Shown here: in pieces, positions 1,295 through 53,704 of the stretch
Layout of the letters: each line of letters begins with the position of its first letter
Position numbering within the stretch: the stretch's first letter is position 1
Source: Minisyncoccota bacterium
GTDB taxonomy: Bacteria; Patescibacteriota; Minisyncoccia; Phycocordibacterales; XYD1-FULL-46-19
Assembly (NCBI GenBank): GCA_041649495.1
Contig: JBAZMZ010000004.1
Coordinates: 1-60,758 of the forward strand
Direction of reading: 5' to 3'
Length of the DNA stretch: 60,758 bases
Notes under the pieces: model-generated
The model's database searches: none
What the model saw: the letters and a program-made list of their open reading frames with translations, nothing else
Told to the model about the DNA's origin: nothing
Translations under genes and position numbers: made by a program

Positions 1295-1443
1295 GCGATT
1301 AGAGAATGGTTGGCTTGTGCCAAGGGGGATAGAATTTCTCCCGTTTCGTCGACAGTATCGGCGAGATTCGTTCGCGCATAGAAATTGCGCACTGTGTACC
1401 TTGTGTCGAATGGTTGGGTCAACAACTCATAGGAGAGAAAAAC

Positions 1444-2553
1444 ATGTATGACCTGGCACAACTCGAACAAGCGGGGTTTAAATTCACCCCGCTGGAAAGA
1501 TTGGTCTTTGAGAATCCAAGTTTCCAGTTCCTCTGCATGAGGGGCTGGCCAATCAAGTGGGGCGAAATCACCACGGGATTGGCTACCAAAGCGGGCAGAG
1601 ATTGCTTTTATCGAAAGGACGTGAGTTTCCAGCCGGCCGAGACAGAAAAGCTTTCGCCCCATGGAGCGGGAATCTGTTTCGACGAGGTCCAGTCTCATCT
1701 CAGAAGTATCATCGTTCTGACAGCCAAGGTGGCACGAGACGCTTCAGCGAATGTTTTTGATCGGATGCTGGTAGAGGATCTCAATCTCTGGCTGAGTGGA
1801 ATGGGCATCGCCCTTTGTGGAGAATTATTCCGTTGGGCGAGGTTTGAACAAGAACACCGGGAGAAACTAGCACGAGAAGCAAGAGTGGCGGAAGTCGCTA
1901 TTCTTTCTCGAGGCTACGCCAATGTCGTAGTTCTACTTCTTGGCAAGCTCGCTCGGGAAGAGAGACAGGCCGTCCGTGAGACCCTAGAAGCCGACTGCCT
2001 AAAACGAGGAGTATTTCGCGAGGGTGACAGGTATGCTCAGTATTACCACTTGCCACGACCAAAATGCATGTGGTGCAACGGAGAGGCAGGAAGATCCGGC
2101 GGTCAGCATTGTGGTAGTTTCGGTTCCGTTGTGACGATCGATTGTGGCGACGTGCAAACGATAATCAGGAGCCTTCCCTCTGATGTCCGGCGAATCGTCA
2201 AACCTGTTCGTTTCCGGGTGCCCAAGAGCACTTTCTCGGATCGGTTTGTACCGTGTGTCGGCAATGGTTTGCTCCCGCAGTTTGCCGTTTTCTCGCTCGC
2301 CAAGCTTTCCAAAGAGGAGCAACAACAGCTCGGAACCGAGCTTGAAGACGGCCTACGAAAGGATCAACGGAGTTTTGGTCCTGGGTATAATGACTGTCGA
2401 GTCATTATACCCCAGGGACGACAGAAACTCAACGCCTTGTTACTCGCCGGGACAATTGCCACCTGGAGCACCTGGAATCACCCCATCAAGGACGAAGGGC
2501 TCTTGTGCAGATTACTTGGGGAGAGGAAGGTATGGGTTGACCTCGTCGAGTAG
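1444..2553 (+). CDS. Hypothetical protein (369 aa), visibly G+C-richer than its neighbours
   Basis: Long ORF. The ATG at 1444 is preceded by AGGAGAG, and a hairpin follows the stop. I recognise no family motif. Confidence 0.6.
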   Translation: MYDLAQLEQAGFKFTPLERLVFENPSFQFLCMRGWPIKWGEITTGLATKAGRDCFYRKDVSFQPAETEKLSPHGAGICFDEVQSHLRSIIVLTAKVARDASANVFDRMLVEDLNLWLSGMGIALCGELFRWARFEQEHREKLAREARVAEVAILSRGYANVVVLLLGKLAREERQAVRETLEADCLKRGVFREGDRYAQYYHLPRPKCMWCNGEAGRSGGQHCGSFGSVVTIDCGDVQTIIRSLPSDVRRIVKPVRFRVPKSTFSDRFVPCVGNGLLPQFAVFSLAKLSKEEQQQLGTELEDGLRKDQRSFGPGYNDCRVIIPQGRQKLNALLLAGTIATWSTWNHPIKDEGLLCRLLGERKVWVDLVE

Positions 2554-2669: not shown

Positions 2670-3188
2670 TTGTATCAGCCACCGATTAGAATCAATAATC
2701 AAATTCGCGCCCGAGAACTCCGCGTTATCGACGAGGAAGGTCAGATTCTTGGAGTTTTGTCGTTTGCCGAGGCCATCAATAAAGCGCGCGAATTAGACAC
2801 GGACCTGATTGAAATCTCCCCCAACGCTGTCCCGCCGGTCGCCAAGATTATGGACTTCGGCAAATATCAATATCTAGAACAAAAGAAGCAAAAACAGGCC
2901 AAGGGCACGACGGGGAGTGAAACCAAGATTTTGCAGGTCAAGATTGGTACCGGCGGACACGATTTAGAGCTTAAGGCGAAAAAAGCGTCCGAATTCCTCA
3001 AGGATGGCCATCGGGTCAAAATCGACCTTTTTCTCCCCGGTCGCGCTAAGTATCTCGACCCCAATTTCTTAAAAGAGCGCTTAGACCGAATTTTGGCCTT
3101 AGTCAGTGAAGACTTCCGATTGGCCATCCCAGCCCAAAAGAGCCCCAAGGGCATGACCGTAATTATCGAGCGAGGTGGACAAAAATAG
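2670..3188 (+). CDS. infC: Translation initiation factor IF-3
   Basis: INNQIRARELRVIDEEGQILGV...DLIEISPNAVPPVAKIMDFGKYQY matches IF-3. It has a non-ATG (TTG) start, as is common for infC, and is followed by rpmI-rplT. Confidence 0.95.
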   Translation: MYQPPIRINNQIRARELRVIDEEGQILGVLSFAEAINKARELDTDLIEISPNAVPPVAKIMDFGKYQYLEQKKQKQAKGTTGSETKILQVKIGTGGHDLELKAKKASEFLKDGHRVKIDLFLPGRAKYLDPNFLKERLDRILALVSEDFRLAIPAQKSPKGMTVIIERGGQK

Positions 3189-3217
3189 TCTTTTATAGTA
3201 AGCTAGCTATTACGGGT

Positions 3218-3312
3218 ATGAATCCCGTTAGAGGTCGCGATCGCCCCGGGTAGAGGGTAAATCGTGGCCTAAAGTATTATTGTTTTAATCGCGATCTACC
3301 TCTAACGGGATG
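3218..3312 (+). promoter_or_regulatory. Hairpin leader with 11-codon uORF that occludes the rpmI start codon
   Basis: The uORF at 3218-3253 encodes MNPVRGRDRPG. The arm ATCCCGTTAGAGGT (3222-3235) pairs with ACCTCTAACGGGAT (3298-3311). The rpmI ATG is at 3310. A second copy lies upstream of pilB. Confidence 0.6.
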
Positions 3313-3514: not shown

Positions 3515-3862
3515 ATGAGCCGAATCAAAAGAGGAACAATTTCAATGAAGCGTCGTCGCAACGTCCTGAAGGACACCAAGGGTTATCGTTTTGGTCGTAG
3601 CACCAAAGAGCGTGAGGCCAAAGTGGCCATCACCAAGGCCGGCGTTTACGCCTACACTCACCGACGCGATAAGAAGGCCGTTTTTCGTGGTCTCTGGCAA
3701 ACTCGCCTCTCGGCCGGTCTCGCTCCTTTCGAAATTTCTTATAGCAAATTCATGGGCGCCCTGAAGAAAAAAGGTGTTCTCCTCAACCGCAAAATGCTCG
3801 CCGACCTCGCCGCCACCGAACCTCAAGTTTTCGAAGCGATTGTGAAGTTGGTTAAAGAATAA
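3515..3862 (+). CDS. rplT: Ribosomal protein bL20
   Basis: MSRIKRGTISMKRRRNVLKDTKGYRFGRS... is a canonical L20 N-terminus. Confidence 0.95.
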   Translation: MSRIKRGTISMKRRRNVLKDTKGYRFGRSTKEREAKVAITKAGVYAYTHRRDKKAVFRGLWQTRLSAGLAPFEISYSKFMGALKKKGVLLNRKMLADLAATEPQVFEAIVKLVKE

Positions 3863-5142: not shown

Positions 5143-5541
5143 TTAAAACTTCTTACTTTTTAATGTCACCACACTTTTTGCTAACATATTTGATAATTCT
5201 TCAACCTCTTTTAAAAGATCCTCAACCTCTCTTTCACTAGCTAATTTAGCATCTTTGAGTAAACATAGCCAGTACTTACATTCATTAGCACTTTTTAGGG
5301 CAATCTCAAAAAATTTCTTAAATTCTAACCTTGAACTTGACGCTCTGGCCTCAACTTGATTAGCTCCGATTGAAGTGGCAGCTCTTATTAATTGGTTAGC
5401 AATAATTTGAGCACTCTTCTTATTGGGCAGACAATCCATTAAGTTTATAACCCGTAAAGACAATTTATAAGATCGGGCAACCAGTGTTTCACCTTTTAAC
5501 TTTGCGCTGAAATTTTGCATTTTGAAATTTGATCTTTGCAC
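5143..5541 (-). CDS. Four-helix-bundle protein (23S rRNA intervening-sequence protein family)
   Basis: QLIRAATSIGANQVEARASSSRLEFKKFFEIALKSANECKYWL matches the TIGR02436-type pattern. Confidence 0.75.
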   Translation of the reverse strand: MQRSNFKMQNFSAKLKGETLVARSYKLSLRVINLMDCLPNKKSAQIIANQLIRAATSIGANQVEARASSSRLEFKKFFEIALKSANECKYWLCLLKDAKLASEREVEDLLKEVEELSNMLAKSVVTLKSKKF

Positions 5542-16950: not shown

Positions 16951-17036
16951 AATTTTTAAATTACTCTAATTATTCTAATTTCTAATATTGGGAATTGGGA
17001 GTTTATTTAGGTTAATTAAGTTAATTAGAAATTAGG
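16951..17036. repeat. AT-rich spacer element, family 3 (copy 1 of 4)
   Basis: ...CTAATTATTCTAATTTCTAAT...TTATTTAGGTTAATTAAGTTAATTAGAAATTAGGTTAATT fills the whole rplO-secY spacer. Confidence 0.8.
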
Positions 17037-17471
17037 TTAATTTTTTATCATCCCACCGGCTTTTTCGATTTTTACCTTAGCCGAATCAGACACCAAACAA
17101 TTCTCAAACTTTAATTTCTTAGTAAAATCGCCCGTGGCCAAAATCTTTACCGCCGGGATTTGACCTCGTTCGCGCTTAACCAATTTCTTGGCCAATAAAA
17201 CAGTTGGCGTAATAAGCTCACCATCTTTAAAGATTTTCTCTAAAGTCGCCAGATTAACGACGGCTGGCTTAACGCTGACCGTACTAAAACGATAACCGCG
17301 CAATTTAGGCAATTTCTTAATGATATCCCGCATTTCGGGACGACGTTTATTGCCAGCGCGAGCCTTCTGACCCTTAGTGCCCCGACCAGAAGTGGTTCCG
17401 CGTTTACCGCCACGACCAACAATTTTTTTGGCGTGATGGCTAGAATGTTTTTTTAAATTATGTAATTGCAT
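17037..17471 (-). CDS. rplO: Ribosomal protein uL15
   Basis: MQLHNLKK...GRGGKRGTTSGRGTKGQKARAG. Confidence 0.95.
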   Translation of the reverse strand: MQLHNLKKHSSHHAKKIVGRGGKRGTTSGRGTKGQKARAGNKRRPEMRDIIKKLPKLRGYRFSTVSVKPAVVNLATLEKIFKDGELITPTVLLAKKLVKRERGQIPAVKILATGDFTKKLKFENCLVSDSAKVKIEKAGGMIKN

Positions 17472-23346: not shown

Positions 23347-23448
23347 GGCGTTAAAAATTATTCTAATTATTTTAATTATTCTAATTTCTAATTGGGAATT
23401 TCGAATTTATTTAGGTTAATTAAGTTAATTAGAAATTAGGTTAATTTT
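23347..23448. repeat. AT-rich spacer element, family 3 (copy 2)
   Basis: Fills the rplX-rplE spacer. It shares the CTAATTTCTAATT ... AATTAGAAATTAG arms. Confidence 0.8.
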
Positions 23449-23754: not shown

Positions 23755-23857
23755 ATTTCTTAAATTATTCTAATTGCTCTAATTATTCTAATTTCTAACA
23801 TTGGAAATTTGGGGTTTGTTTAGGTTAATTAAGTTAATTAGAAATTAGGTTAATTTT
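23755..23857. repeat. AT-rich spacer element, family 3 (copy 3)
   Basis: Fills the rplN-rplX spacer. Confidence 0.8.
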
Positions 23858-47990: not shown

Positions 47991-48014
47991 TTTTTACTTA
48001 TTTGCTTATTTACA

Positions 48015-48067
48015 CCCCCCTCACCCGCCAGACCTTGGGCTCACTTAAGGTCTGGCGGGGACGGGGG
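48015..48067. repeat. Conserved-loop hairpin family member (extended stem)
   Basis: CCGCCAGACCTT gggctcactt AAGGTCTGGCGG, with outer CCCCC/GGGGG pairing. It starts right after the pilin stop codon. Confidence 0.85.
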
Positions 48068-48715
48068 TCATAAATTATCTTTTAAATTTCTCATCATCAC
48101 TTGGCTCGACAAATAAATCGGCACGGGCGCTTGAGCCGAATTGGCATCAATCAAGAATTCAACTTTAACCAAGCGAATATTTTTGATTTCAATCGGCTCA
48201 ACCAGGGGAGAACTCGACGCCGTCCCATCATAATCACGGTCATAATAACTAAAGATCAGGTTGTTAGGGTTAACCATATCATTAACCAGTGTCGAAACAT
48301 CTTCCGCATTAAGATCGTAAACATAGGGTTGGCCCGAGGGGGCAATTTCCCCCCGCTTAAAAGTTTGGCCATCGAGGAAATAACGCAAGCGTTCACGTTT
48401 GCCATCATTATTAATATCGCTATAAAAAATAAAATTACTTTTATCCGCCAATTCGATCGGGTAAGTGCCAGTATTAGACGGTTCAGCGGTGCGAATTTCC
48501 GCCATCAAACGACGCATGGCAATTTTGGCCTCGCTCTCGGCCACCAATTCGCGCGACCAAACTAAATTTTGGTAAAAAATATCCCGACCAAAATTAGCAA
48601 TCGCCAAGCCAACGAGAACCACCAGGCCGACAACCACCAGCATTTCTACTAGCGTGAAACCCGCCTGATTCGTCAGATTCGCCTGAACTCGTAGATTCGT
48701 ATCGTGTATTTTCAT
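48068..48715 (-). CDS. Prepilin-type protein (PulJ/PilW-like), 19-aa leader
   Basis: ...TNQAG FTLVEMLVVVGLVVL is the class III signal/N-methylation motif. Confidence 0.85.
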   Translation of the reverse strand: MKIHDTNLRVQANLTNQAGFTLVEMLVVVGLVVLVGLAIANFGRDIFYQNLVWSRELVAESEAKIAMRRLMAEIRTAEPSNTGTYPIELADKSNFIFYSDINNDGKRERLRYFLDGQTFKRGEIAPSGQPYVYDLNAEDVSTLVNDMVNPNNLIFSYYDRDYDGTASSSPLVEPIEIKNIRLVKVEFLIDANSAQAPVPIYLSSQVMMRNLKDNL

Positions 48716-51749: not shown

Positions 51750-51767
51750 TTTTTAATTTTTATTTTG

Positions 51768-51803
51768 CCCGCCAGACCTTGGGCTCACTTAAGGTCTGGC
51801 GGG
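51768..51803. repeat. Conserved-loop hairpin family member
   Basis: CCCGCCAGACCTT gggctcactt AAGGTCTGGCGGG, lying between pilB and pilC. Confidence 0.85.
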
Positions 51804-51814
51804 AAAGTGAGGGG

Positions 51815-53584
51815 TCATTCCGTCACCGCTCGAAGCACTTCCTCGATCGTTGTCACGCCTTGAACCGCTTTGAAAATGCCGTCTTCAAGCATCGTTAACA
51901 TCCCCTCGCTTCGGGCTTGCTCGGCCAAATCTTCGGCCGAGGCCCCCTTAATAATCAAATCGCGCAAGGTCCGGCTCACACCCAAAACTTCGCTAATACT
52001 CACTCGGCCGGCATAACCGTCAGAACAAGTTGTCGCTCCACTCGCCACTTTGGGATGATAAAAAGAAATCGTGCTCCAAGTATCAGTGGGTTTGATAATT
52101 TTTTCTTTCTTCAAACAATCTAACACGCGCTCAAGATTAGCCTTGGTGGCCAAACTTTTGATTTCAGCCTCGGTAGGATGATAAGCCTCGCGCTCGGGAC
52201 AAAGTCGGCGAACGAGGCGCTGGGCCACAATCACCTCCAAAGTAGAGACCAAGAGAAAAGGTTCGGCCCCCAAATCAAGCAAACGCGGAATCGTGCCGGC
52301 CGCTGAATTAGTGTGGAGCGTCGAGAGAACCAAGTGGCCAGTGAGTGAAGCATTGATCGCCAAACCCGAAGTTTCGCGATCACGAATTTCGCCCACCATA
52401 ATAATGTCCGGGTCCTGGCGAACGAGCGTTCGCAAACCAGTCGCAAAAGTCAAACCAATATCGGGTCGAACTTGGGTTTGATTAATGCGTGAAATTTGAT
52501 ACTCAATCGGGTCTTCAATCGTCGAGATATTAACATCCGGTGTATTTAAAATATCGAGCAAAGCGTAAAGCGTCGTCGACTTACCCGAGCCGGTTGGGCC
52601 GGTCACTAAAACTAAGCCCATAGTTCGCTTCACCGCTTGCTGAATTTTTTCTAAACCTTCGCCGTGAAAACCGACCGACTCAAGCGTGTAACCATGGACC
52701 GAATCAGGTAAGAGACGCATCACGACCTTCTCGCCAAATTGCGTCGGTAAAGTCGAAACCCGAAACGAAACATTTTGGCCATGCGTTTCAATCTTGAAGC
52801 GACCATCTTGAGGTAAACGCTTTTCGTCTAATCGCAAATTCGACAATACCTTAATGCGGGCCGTAATCCCGGGCGCCGTTTTTTTGGGTAAAATCATCGC
52901 GTCATGCAAAATCCCGTCCAAGCGATAGCGAATAACCAACTCATTTTCAAACGGCTCAATATGAATATCCGACGCCTTTTGCAAAATCGCGTGGGCCAAA
53001 AGCGAATCCACCATCCGCACGACCGGCAAATCTTCGGCGATTTTCGCCAAATCGTCACTTTTTGACTCACCCCCCAAATCACCCTCGGCCAAATCAGCTA
53101 AAGGGTTCGGCAAATTATTTGATTCTTTCTGGATAATATCACCAAAATCAGCTTTGAGACTTTTCTGATATTGCACCAGCGCATTCTTCATCGATTCTGT
53201 ATCAGTCAAACGCGGTAAAATTTTCAGCGAACTCCCCTTCTTGATAAAATCAATGGCCTCTAAATCAAGCGGATCAAGCATCGCGATCTCCAATGTCTCG
53301 CCCGTCTTTTTATAGGCCACCAAATTATGTTTACGCGCCAACGGTTCGGGAATCAAGGCCAAAATATCTTTCGGAATTCGTTCCTTTTTCAAATCCACAA
53401 ACGGAATCCCCAAAACATACGACTTAGCCCGCCGTAAATCATCCTCGATCAGGAAACCTTTGCCAATCAGCAAATCTTCAATTCGCGCGCCAGAACTTTC
53501 TGCCTCCGCCTCAACCACCGCAAAATCTTTCGCTGTCACCAAACGCGAATCAATCAAAAAATTTTTTAATGGTTCAATTTCCAT
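51815..53584 (-). CDS. pilB: Type IV pilus assembly ATPase PilB (GspE family)
   Basis: Has a T2SSE N-domain, Walker A (GPTGSGKST), and Asp and His boxes. Confidence 0.95.
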   Translation of the reverse strand: MEIEPLKNFLIDSRLVTAKDFAVVEAEAESSGARIEDLLIGKGFLIEDDLRRAKSYVLGIPFVDLKKERIPKDILALIPEPLARKHNLVAYKKTGETLEIAMLDPLDLEAIDFIKKGSSLKILPRLTDTESMKNALVQYQKSLKADFGDIIQKESNNLPNPLADLAEGDLGGESKSDDLAKIAEDLPVVRMVDSLLAHAILQKASDIHIEPFENELVIRYRLDGILHDAMILPKKTAPGITARIKVLSNLRLDEKRLPQDGRFKIETHGQNVSFRVSTLPTQFGEKVVMRLLPDSVHGYTLESVGFHGEGLEKIQQAVKRTMGLVLVTGPTGSGKSTTLYALLDILNTPDVNISTIEDPIEYQISRINQTQVRPDIGLTFATGLRTLVRQDPDIIMVGEIRDRETSGLAINASLTGHLVLSTLHTNSAAGTIPRLLDLGAEPFLLVSTLEVIVAQRLVRRLCPEREAYHPTEAEIKSLATKANLERVLDCLKKEKIIKPTDTWSTISFYHPKVASGATTCSDGYAGRVSISEVLGVSRTLRDLIIKGASAEDLAEQARSEGMLTMLEDGIFKAVQGVTTIEEVLRAVTE

Positions 53585-53704
53585 CCCGTTAGAGGCAGAT
53601 TACGATCGATAAATCGTCATCTAACATTATTTTGTCTTCTAATAATATTTTAAACATATTTTTTAAAAAGCTTAATGGTGATCGTGGCCTCTAACGGGAT
53701 CCAT
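53583..53704 (-). promoter_or_regulatory. Second copy of the uORF-hairpin leader, occluding the pilB start codon
   Basis: The uORF at 53704-53672 encodes MDPVRGHDHH. The arms are 53687-53700 and 53583-53596 (GCCTCTAACGGGAT/ATCCCGTTAGAGGC). The pilB ATG is at 53584. Confidence 0.6.

Follow-up and report, generated by a model that had tools for sequence, protein, structure and literature searches.

A start-codon hairpin in a Minisyncoccota genome as a probable decayed copy of a palindromic mobile element family of Patescibacteria

Correia elements of Neisseria are MITEs (miniature inverted-repeat transposable elements): they are short, non-coding and multi-copy, have terminal inverted repeats (TIRs) and a target duplication, are found beside genes and transcribed along with them, and can fold into a long hairpin as RNA; RNase III is known to process them. 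Closest to the elements described here is the Ssn/NTS system, in which single-domain GIY-YIG proteins of 94 amino acids (aa) are encoded by genes flanked by hairpin repeats (NTS/SRM) that are found in solo form as well, in hundreds of copies (Chenal et al., Nat Commun 2025; PMC11893778). Binding of SsnA to the hairpin requires single-stranded DNA (ssDNA) and is confined to one strand, and the cut falls a few nucleotides (nt) 5′ of the hairpin; the NTS-ssnA-NTS layout was likened to an insertion sequence, and a domesticated mobile element was suggested (PMC11893778). Here we analyze a 60,758-nt contig of a Minisyncoccota bacterium (assembly GCA_041649495.1, contig JBAZMZ010000004.1; "the window" means this whole stretch), in which a hairpin covers the start codon of rpmI, the gene for ribosomal protein L35, and a second one lies before a PilB-like ATPase gene (pilB). 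By comparison with related loci, the rpmI hairpin is a decayed mobile-element copy and not a ribosomal-protein regulator; very probably, it is a non-autonomous, MITE-like member of a hairpin-bounded element family that is widespread in Patescibacteria, or candidate phyla radiation (CPR) bacteria.

The 121-nt spacer between infC and rpmI holds copy 1 (Table 1). Positions 3222-3235 (ATCCCGTTAGAGGT) are the exact reverse complement of 3298-3311 and form the 14-bp perfect helix reported by the first-pass annotation of this DNA, ending in the A and T of the rpmI ATG (3310-3312); the element's own arms are perfect over 13 bp, the 14-bp helix counting one base pair of the target site duplication (TSD). 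The 11-codon upstream open reading frame (uORF) described there, MNPVRGRDRPG, does cover the 5′ arm, and the reported twin stands before pilB on the other strand, with uORF MDPVRGHDHH, a C-G arm pair in place of T-A, a different second helix and a longer loop of different sequence. With its flanks, copy 2 spans 53580-53704 on the minus strand. The flanking direct repeats are likewise as described, ATGAA at rpmI and ATGGA at pilB. Predicted RNA folds reach -40.7 kcal/mol for copy 1 and -42.5 kcal/mol for copy 2 (z-scores, -3.5 and -6.6), and none of 200 shuffled sequences folded as well. Like MITEs, both copies are short (88 and 116 bp) and without a mobility gene of their own, containing only ORF stumps of 10-11 codons, and both end in inverted repeats; the left-arm sequence of copy 1 recurs at the element ends of about 60 other loci among the matches listed in the family scan described below.

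The first-pass annotation had offered a MITE-like insertion as an alternative and had pointed to orthologous loci without the element as the place to look, and such loci exist at both genes. The element is absent from the rpmI leaders of L128 (InfC 95% identical), L126 (86%) and L127 (86%), and from pilB in L129 (protein 92% identical), L130 (89%) and L131 (83%), where L-numbers are labels of comparison contigs or loci. At pilB, the filled site of the window reads ...TTTTAGTTTATGGA (T CCCG..CGGG) ATGGAAATTGAACC, the unoccupied site of L129 reads ...TTTTAGTTTATGGAAATTGAACC, and the exact empty site is ...TTTATGGAAATTG; at the position of the right TSD of copy 2, L129 has AGTTTATGGAAATTGAACC, which equals the unoccupied site. 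The insertion at pilB therefore duplicated TGGA. In the rpmI leaders of L126, L127 and L128, the TTTTATAGTAAGCTAGCTA block is conserved and leads into a small GC hairpin, then a U-rich stretch and finally ATGAA(A/G)AC; at this gene the window matches its relatives at the right junction only, where copy 1 reads ATGAAAACCAAC, the rpmI start of L128. Given the empty sites at both genes, the two copies are lineage-specific insertions that duplicated a few target bases. Five other contigs of the same species have an identical infC-rpmI spacer, so that the insertion is fixed in six contigs. A covariance-model scan, also suggested by the first-pass annotation, was made with a model built from 20 copies, the two window copies included: it gave exactly two matches in the window (both in the training set) and none in 75 kb from relatives, and it recovered an independent copy elsewhere in the family (L135, 263-395; E=2.5e-9).

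Other hairpins and hairpin fragments occur in these leaders. The small rpmI leader hairpin of L126 (10557-10571), TCCCGTCAGACGGGA, agrees with the element arm in 10 of 12 positions and has the TCCCG/CGGGA foot in common; chance or a collapsed relic may account for this. In L127 and L128, another hairpin (TCCGCC...GGCGGA) occupies this place in the leader, and a U-rich run comes after it, just before the rpmI ATG. In the window, TTACGGGT (3210-3217) lies between the conserved AGCTAGCTA block and the upstream ATG of the uORF (ATG1) and resembles the element's right end (TAACGGG). A clear tandem case is L119, where a degenerate right end, CTATTTCTAACGGG, stands immediately before a second copy's ATGAAT.

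When one genome per species was scanned with ATCCCGTTAGAGGYC, at least 120 matches were obtained. Among the matches listed, about 60 loci have a partner arm 30-275 nt away, nearly all of them in Patescibacteria (Saccharibacteria, Paceibacteria, Yanofsky-, Giovannoni-, Lloyd-, Kaiser-, Uhr-, Doudna-, and Buchananbacteria), and single-arm matches in non-CPR genomes were at chance level. The family arms, CCCGTTAGAGG/CCTCTAACGGG, occur in many Patescibacteria genomes, mostly on ATGRA starts and in one polarity. In 35 paired-arm elements among the matches listed, an ATG begins right after the arm and opens an ORF of at least 60 codons. The short start-codon copies are forward in 32 cases, reverse in none and unclear in 3, so that all 32 orientable copies lie alike, with GAGG-Y-C... 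in the gene-distal arm and ...CT-R-CCTC in the gene-proximal arm; start codons make up about 6% of the ATGRA sites in these loci and about 28% of the gene-sparing sites. The genes that host short copies are unrelated (gyrA, prfA, infB, the L17, L23, and L25 genes, ddl, mnmA, rpiB, pgi, and genes for an aminoacyl-tRNA synthetase, a DsbA-like protein, and a glycosyltransferase); in other genomes, dozens of unrelated genes carry the element. The usual duplication is TGAA (TSD of 4-5 bp), and the element proper is T-CCCG...CGGG-A, as follows from the non-ATG duplications (TTAA, TAAA, CTGG, TAGAA, and TTGTA) and from the pilB empty site. Two elements with C...G termini (L170 and L192) have host genes that start with GTG, indicating that base 1 of the rebuilt start codon comes from the element.

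We also considered what else might mark the insertion sites. An extended DNA target motif was rejected, as 61 reconstructed sites and 114 control ATGRA starts differ only weakly. A TAnnnT box stands 5-9 nt upstream of ATG1 in many copies, but targeting of leaderless genes or transcription starts is not general, because the rpmI and pilB genes of relatives keep -10 boxes (TATAGT and TAAAAT) and leaders of 35-45 nt. A search for promoters or terminators facing out of the element found none in copy 1 and chance-level matches in the AT-rich loop of copy 2, and a search of a viral contig collection for phage carriage returned no relative.

Longer members of the family with the same ends carry a gene. 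In a 275-nt copy (L100), a GIY-YIG ORF lies between the arms (Pfam PF01541, E=1.3e-16), and L070 is a second full-length copy of this kind; L070 and the short L069 (117 nt) are found at one orthologous gene start and share the flanking repeat ATGCAAT. More than 3000 homologues came out of a protein search, mostly of 94-95 aa, starting with MNPVRD and ending with NRLKRFLSLTG; both termini are therefore encoded by the arms (CCCGTTAGAGA and TCTCTAACGGG). The intact element is about 277 bp long and has a single gene, for a single-domain GIY-YIG nuclease of 94-95 aa, whose ORF runs from the upstream (duplicated host) ATG through the right arm to ...FLSLTG-TGA, with the TGA overlapping the next gene's ATG by 4 nt; in some contigs, ATG1 itself overlaps the stop codon of the preceding gene. 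The host genes occupied by the family include murG and a methyltransferase gene, besides gyrA and prfA. A metagenome scan gave 80 loci, 74 of which have both arms 273-338 nt apart (mostly 275-278) and the nuclease ORF exactly between them, its own termini arm-encoded. A host start codon followed by an ORF adjoins the element in 47 of 71 unique full-length loci, and in none is the element reversed; 45 of the 47 keep the nuclease frame open over 80 codons or more, with its end, xTGA, overlying the host ATG, and 28 loci are open from ATG1. At an ATGGA site in L218 (598-876), the right arm has changed from CGGG to CGTG, creating TGATG (a TGA stop over the host ATG), and the left arm from CCCG to CACG, by which arm complementarity is kept. 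In a contig from the same sample as the window (L135), murG is preceded by a full-length copy and ftsW by a short one, which retains the nuclease codons NLRKR and KRFL and is thus an internal-deletion derivative. These elements of about 277 bp are the autonomous relatives with the same ends that a MITE family would have, and their protein may be what mobilizes it. Empty sites, TSDs and same-ended relatives together bear out the MITE-like alternative of the first-pass annotation, including its remark that the direct repeat contains the start codon; its other proposal, a conserved uORF and hairpin leader, is not supported, as discussed below.

The confidently predicted structure of the nuclease (predicted local distance difference test, pLDDT, 86) consists of a GIY-YIG core with a long helix at the C-terminus and, at the N-terminus, a disordered peptide encoded by the arm; the nearest solved structures are UPF0213 proteins (BH0048 and EF2693; PDB 1zg2, E=7e-9) and Slx1, a nuclease of branched DNA. 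L037 (reverse complement, 2228-2491) has an intact GIY-YIG gene of this family without recognizable arms and with a C-terminus reading ...KCWLKIGV; the rpiB start codon there carries a short copy of 46 nt, and the gene, 81 nt upstream of this copy, may be an arm-less or domesticated version. Non-intron insertions in the rRNA genes of CPR bacteria have been noted to contain GIY-YIG ORFs (Tsurumaki et al. 2024; PMC11270868), and rRNA genes were considered as the location of non-start full-length copies, but 10 such loci gave no Rfam hits. The section on the Slx1 cluster in Dunin-Horkawicz et al. 2006 (PMC1564403) contains possible traces of similar mobile GIY-YIG cassettes outside the CPR. In the literature searched, we found no paper that gives the arm sequence or describes GIY-YIG elements at start codons, and the start-codon targeting, the rebuilding of the ATG, and the empty-site evidence for mobility look new.

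Read from the sequences, the family inserts into (A)TGAA with duplication of the target, rebuilds the start codon, and lies in a single polarity, with an ORF that begins at the left-behind ATG and ends on the rebuilt one and with a decay series that runs down to hairpins of 30-120 nt. At rpmI, the element entered the TGAA that overlaps the start codon and duplicated those 4 bp; its terminal A and the duplicated TG rebuild the rpmI ATG, and the original ATG stays upstream. The left-behind host ATG is where the nuclease ORF begins, so that the left arm encodes the first residues, MNPVR(D/G); the tail, ...RFLSLTG, is encoded by the right arm, with the TGA overlapping the rebuilt host ATG (AUGA). 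An intact element would in this manner borrow the host's translation start and return the ribosomes through stop-start coupling. The window copies have lost the nuclease ORF, and the 11-codon uORF is its stump. With the arms now only 62 nt apart, the RNA would fold on itself at about -40 kcal/mol and hide the rpmI AUG in a hairpin. Ribosomes loading co-transcriptionally at ATG1 would occupy the left arm and keep the right arm and the second AUG (AUG2) single-stranded; processing of the hairpin would be an alternative route, and rpmI expression probably relies on one or the other. Melting of the helix by translation of the uORF, a mechanism raised by the first-pass annotation, could then be a mechanical consequence of the insertion and not a target of selection.

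How the element moves can be approached by analogy with Ssn. The nuclease would recognize the paired arms as an ssDNA hairpin and nick a few nt 5′ of its foot in a strand-specific manner, which would result in fixed polarity and oriented integration; ssDNA- and strand-specific cleavage 5′ of a hairpin is compatible with the fixed polarity of the family and with the lack of an RNA-strand signature. We tentatively propose, as a plausible reading that falls somewhat short of probable, a class of autonomous elements whose sole gene, encoding an Ssn-like GIY-YIG single-strand nuclease of about 95 aa, lies inside its own hairpin, and which inserts one way at (A)TGAA start codons, borrowing the host start and returning it through its terminal base and AUGA coupling.

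Compared with Ssn, the CPR family has features in common and features of its own. Patescibacteria, start codons, and duplications are not mentioned in PMC11893778, whereas the CPR copies sit on start codons with a 4-5 bp duplication, a rebuilt ATG, and empty sites in relatives. The parent element, though not the window copies, encodes a single-domain GIY-YIG protein of about 94 aa as Ssn loci do; in both systems the gene is bracketed by inverted repeats with solo copies, the repeat has a polarity, and the stem foot is similar (TCCCG...CGGGA in CPR, ATTCCCGCG...CGCGGGAAT in Neisseria). In contrast, the CPR gene lies inside one hairpin whose arms overlap its first and last codons, and the Ssn gene lies between two complete hairpins; the SRM consensus HGTCWY-N(0-2)-YYVSBRH... 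does not fit, ATGAATCCCGTTAGAGG being without the GTC block by inspection. With Correia-type MITEs the family shares TIRs, a target duplication, and a small, multi-copy, gene-adjacent form, and it differs from them in its target ((A)TGAA start codons rather than TA), its fixed polarity, and a GIY-YIG parent in place of a known transposase.

Rickettsia palindromic elements (RPEs) are palindromic repeats tolerated within or at the edge of coding sequences in reduced genomes. Some CPR relatives are RPE-like: short copies of 27-69 nt lie in frame and stop-free inside rsmA/ksgA (L008 and L113) and at the start of the L23 gene, that is, at the N-terminus of the protein (L017 and L117), and add 11-25 residues to the host protein (MNPVRG...SNG-M...). 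In the window copies, by contrast, the uORFs end after 10-11 codons; RPEs are not similar to the CPR family in sequence, and location at start codons is particular to the latter. HUH tyrosine transposases, separate left and right hairpins, and the lack of a target duplication characterize IS200/IS605 elements, PATEs, and REP/RAYT systems; these resemble the CPR family in strand-specific hairpin recognition, in small non-autonomous hairpin derivatives, and in oriented insertion beside a short target, but the CPR family has a duplication, a single hairpin, and a GIY-YIG gene. Homing endonucleases have a DNA-binding domain and one cognate site in one conserved gene, are spread by homologous repair, and lack inverted repeats and duplications. 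Free-standing GIY-YIG homing endonuclease genes (the T4 seg genes and I-TevI) are likewise selfish nuclease genes wedged between host genes, but the CPR family occurs in dozens of unrelated genes and not at one cognate target. Rickettsia is among the SRM-rich genomes, and the IS200/IS605, PATE, and REP/RAYT systems were compared with Ssn by the authors of that work (PMC11893778).

Several points weigh against the insertion reading or against its extension to a nuclease-driven element. On its left side, copy 1 does not make a clean filled site, as TTACGGGT replaces the 38-nt hairpin leader of L128; the flanks do not match in L029, L082, and L093 (ATGAA against ATGGA or ATGAT), and the left ATGAA is missing in several full-length copies. 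The start-codon bias of the short copies comes without an extended DNA motif to explain it, and the 60-kb window contains no nuclease gene with these arms, so that a source of mobilization in trans is not seen there. That rpmI is translated past the hairpin rests on its presumed essentiality and on fixation in the six contigs. The family is known from sequence alone, and, to our knowledge, strand transfer is not an activity of GIY-YIG enzymes.

Among the alternatives, exaptation survives best, although we consider it unlikely: the hairpins would be domesticated repeats that the host keeps as binding or cleavage sites for an Ssn-like nuclease or another protein, and could mark gene starts so as to tune recombination or transformation or to co-regulate genes. 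The arms are invariant over divergent CPR classes and in old orthologous insertions whose interiors and flanking coding sequences have diverged (L014/L119, L041/L090, and L008/L113), and the Neisseria NTS repeats together with SsnA do modulate transformation (PMC11893778). On the other hand, both window insertions are lineage-specific and recent, the host genes are without a common function, and conserved arms are equally expected if the nuclease still acts on the element's ends.

Somewhat less probable again is an ordinary MITE moved by an unsampled DDE transposase, with the GIY-YIG ORF as a passenger or a secondary insertion. TIRs combined with a target duplication of 4-5 bp classically mark DDE cut-and-paste elements, and that we know of no strand-transfer chemistry for GIY-YIG enzymes counts in its favor as well. 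However, a conventional insertion sequence with the same ends was looked for and rejected, as no partner arm lies 400-3000 bp away among the at least 120 loci listed; the nuclease ORF sits exactly between the arms, which encode its termini, in nearly all full-length loci; the compensatory arm changes of L218 preserve the ORF stop; and such strict polarity is unusual for DDE elements.

The proposal of the first-pass annotation, an evolved cis-regulatory leader in which a conserved leader peptide controls a start-masking hairpin of rpmI and pilB, is in our view highly improbable. It does draw on true features, since the helix contains the A and U of the AUG, the uORF covers the 5′ arm, and the arms pair in 95% of cells across 20 copies, but it is already largely refuted by the empty sites, the leaders of close relatives being without the element at both genes (86-95% identity at rpmI and 83-92% at pilB), and the same element fronts dozens of unrelated genes. 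Nor is the mini-ORF conserved in the sense required of a leader-peptide attenuator, with frame, length, and position kept. Across 34 copies, the uORF has 4-75 codons, and the distance from ATG1 to the second ATG (ATG2) falls into the three classes modulo 3 in 13, 12, and 9 cases; three copies with one extra flank base read M(K/Q/E)SR-stop, and in three short copies (L017 in L23, L008 and L113 inside rsmA) the frame continues without a stop into the host protein. Conservation is confined to the part that the inverted repeat encodes. The mini-ORF exists because the duplication contains an ATG and the arm has no stop in that frame, and, as the parent proteins begin with MNPVRD, the window uORF MNPVRG... 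is best read as the vestigial N-terminus of the nuclease ORF.

The helix itself is well kept. Among the helix cells of 20 short copies from the window's subfamily, 95% are paired; at position 14, the arm pair has changed from C-G to U-A in 7 copies, and 4 of 8 pairs of helix 2 have changed on both sides with complementarity retained. Selection on the sense-strand RNA was considered as the cause and rejected, because G.U and A.C mismatches are equally frequent (11 and 12), so that nothing singles out that strand; the constraint looks to be at the DNA level, on a hairpin or cruciform or on two matching ends. A search of the window at Rfam gathering thresholds returned a tmRNA only and nothing at the element copies. 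An L20 (rplT) autoregulatory operator in the rpmI leader, which the position upstream of rpmI-rplT might suggest but which, as the first-pass annotation remarked, would not explain a twin before pilB, has next to no chance of being correct and is already refuted by the element's distribution, given that the curated L20_leader family of Rfam gave no match, that orthologous rpmI leaders are without the element, and that it has a twin at pilB and copies at many unrelated genes.

Table 1. Element copies, their parts, and adjacent genes in the window; element assignments are putative
Feature	Position	Strand	Remarks
infC	2670-3188		
rpmI, ribosomal protein L35, 61 aa	3310-3495	+	host gene with hit start codon; Pfam Ribosomal_L35p
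rplT	3515-3862		
Element copy 1, 88 bp, T-CCCGTTAGAGG...CCTCTAACGGG-A	3223-3310	+	non-autonomous, palindromic; between infC and rpmI
Copy 1 left arm (TIR) TCCCGTTAGAGGT	3223-3235	+	
Copy 1 right arm ACCTCTAACGGGA	3298-3310	+	final A is base 1 of the rpmI start codon
Copy 1 helix 2, 5′ half, CGCGAT	3236-3241	+	pairs with 3288-3293
Copy 1 helix 2, 3′ half, ATCGCG	3288-3293	+	
Copy 1 bulge ATCT	3294-3297	+	AYCT in the family; gives the element its polarity
Copy 1 left TSD TGAA	3219-3222	+	with A3218, original rpmI start codon (ATG1)
Copy 1 right TSD TGAA	3311-3314	+	TG plus the element's terminal A3310 is the working rpmI ATG
Copy 1 relic uORF MNPVRGRDRPG-stop (ATG...TAG)	3218-3253	+	duplicated start plus arm-encoded vestige of the GIY-YIG ORF
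PilB-like ATPase gene	51815-53584	-	
Element copy 2, 116 bp	53584-53699	-	before the PilB-like ATPase gene; polarity to the gene as in copy 1
Copy 2 left (upstream) TSD TGGA	53700-53703	-	ATG1 is 53702-53704
Copy 2 relic uORF MDPVRGHDHH	53672-53704	-	
Copy 2 right (gene-side) TSD TGGA	53580-53583	-	working pilB ATG is 53582-53584

Other repeats occur in the window as well. A second, unrelated inverted-repeat family, AATTATTCTAATTTCTAAT...ATTAGAAATTAGGTTAATT, with arms of 18-20 nt and loops of 33-39 nt, is present at 16968-17042, 23374-23446, and 23781-23855 in a region of ribosomal-protein genes, and related AT-rich motifs (ttagaaattagaataatt; ctaaatactaa / tatactaat) recur immediately upstream of many genes from about 15 to 36 kb. 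Two GC-rich hairpins with CCCGCCAGACCTT/AAGGTCTGGCGGG in common (48008-48075 and 51765-51806) lie downstream of pilus-cluster genes and are possibly a shared terminator-like repeat. The 61 long ORFs of the window have almost no Shine-Dalgarno (SD) sequences, A/T-rich runs stand before the starts, and a TAnnnT box lies just 5-9 nt from the ATG in many first genes, which suggests non-SD, partly leaderless initiation in this Paceibacteria lineage. Around the infC operon, the window has genes that are extra relative to L126 and L127 (3866-4357, minus strand; 5143-5541, minus strand; and 1414-2553, plus strand), including a RelE/HigB/ParE-like toxin (weak Pfam matches below the curated cutoff) with a 73-aa partner, a four-helix 23S_rRNA_IVP protein (E=1e-23), and a 379-aa ORF between smpB and infC with no Pfam match.

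These results correct an attractive reading of the rpmI hairpin as a ribosomal-protein riboregulator, and they provide the first comparative insertion evidence (empty sites, duplications, and a decay series) for a GIY-YIG/hairpin element, whose mobility had only been hypothesized (PMC11893778). Gene callers and RNA-motif hunters are liable to mistake copies for leaders, uORFs, or N-terminal extensions. Ssn-type enzymes are under development as ssDNA tools, and new enzyme/hairpin pairs with a defined cut context may be useful there. If the proposed autonomous class is real, this would be the first case of a GIY-YIG nuclease driving a DNA transposon and the first known transposon with translation starts as its target, and the window copies would be its non-autonomous relics. 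Its borrowed start codon, rebuilt ATG, and overlapping stop would make for an unusually economical parasitic design. A single selfish hairpin family occupies many CPR gene starts, including those of the essential rpmI, gyrA, prfA, infB, and murG.

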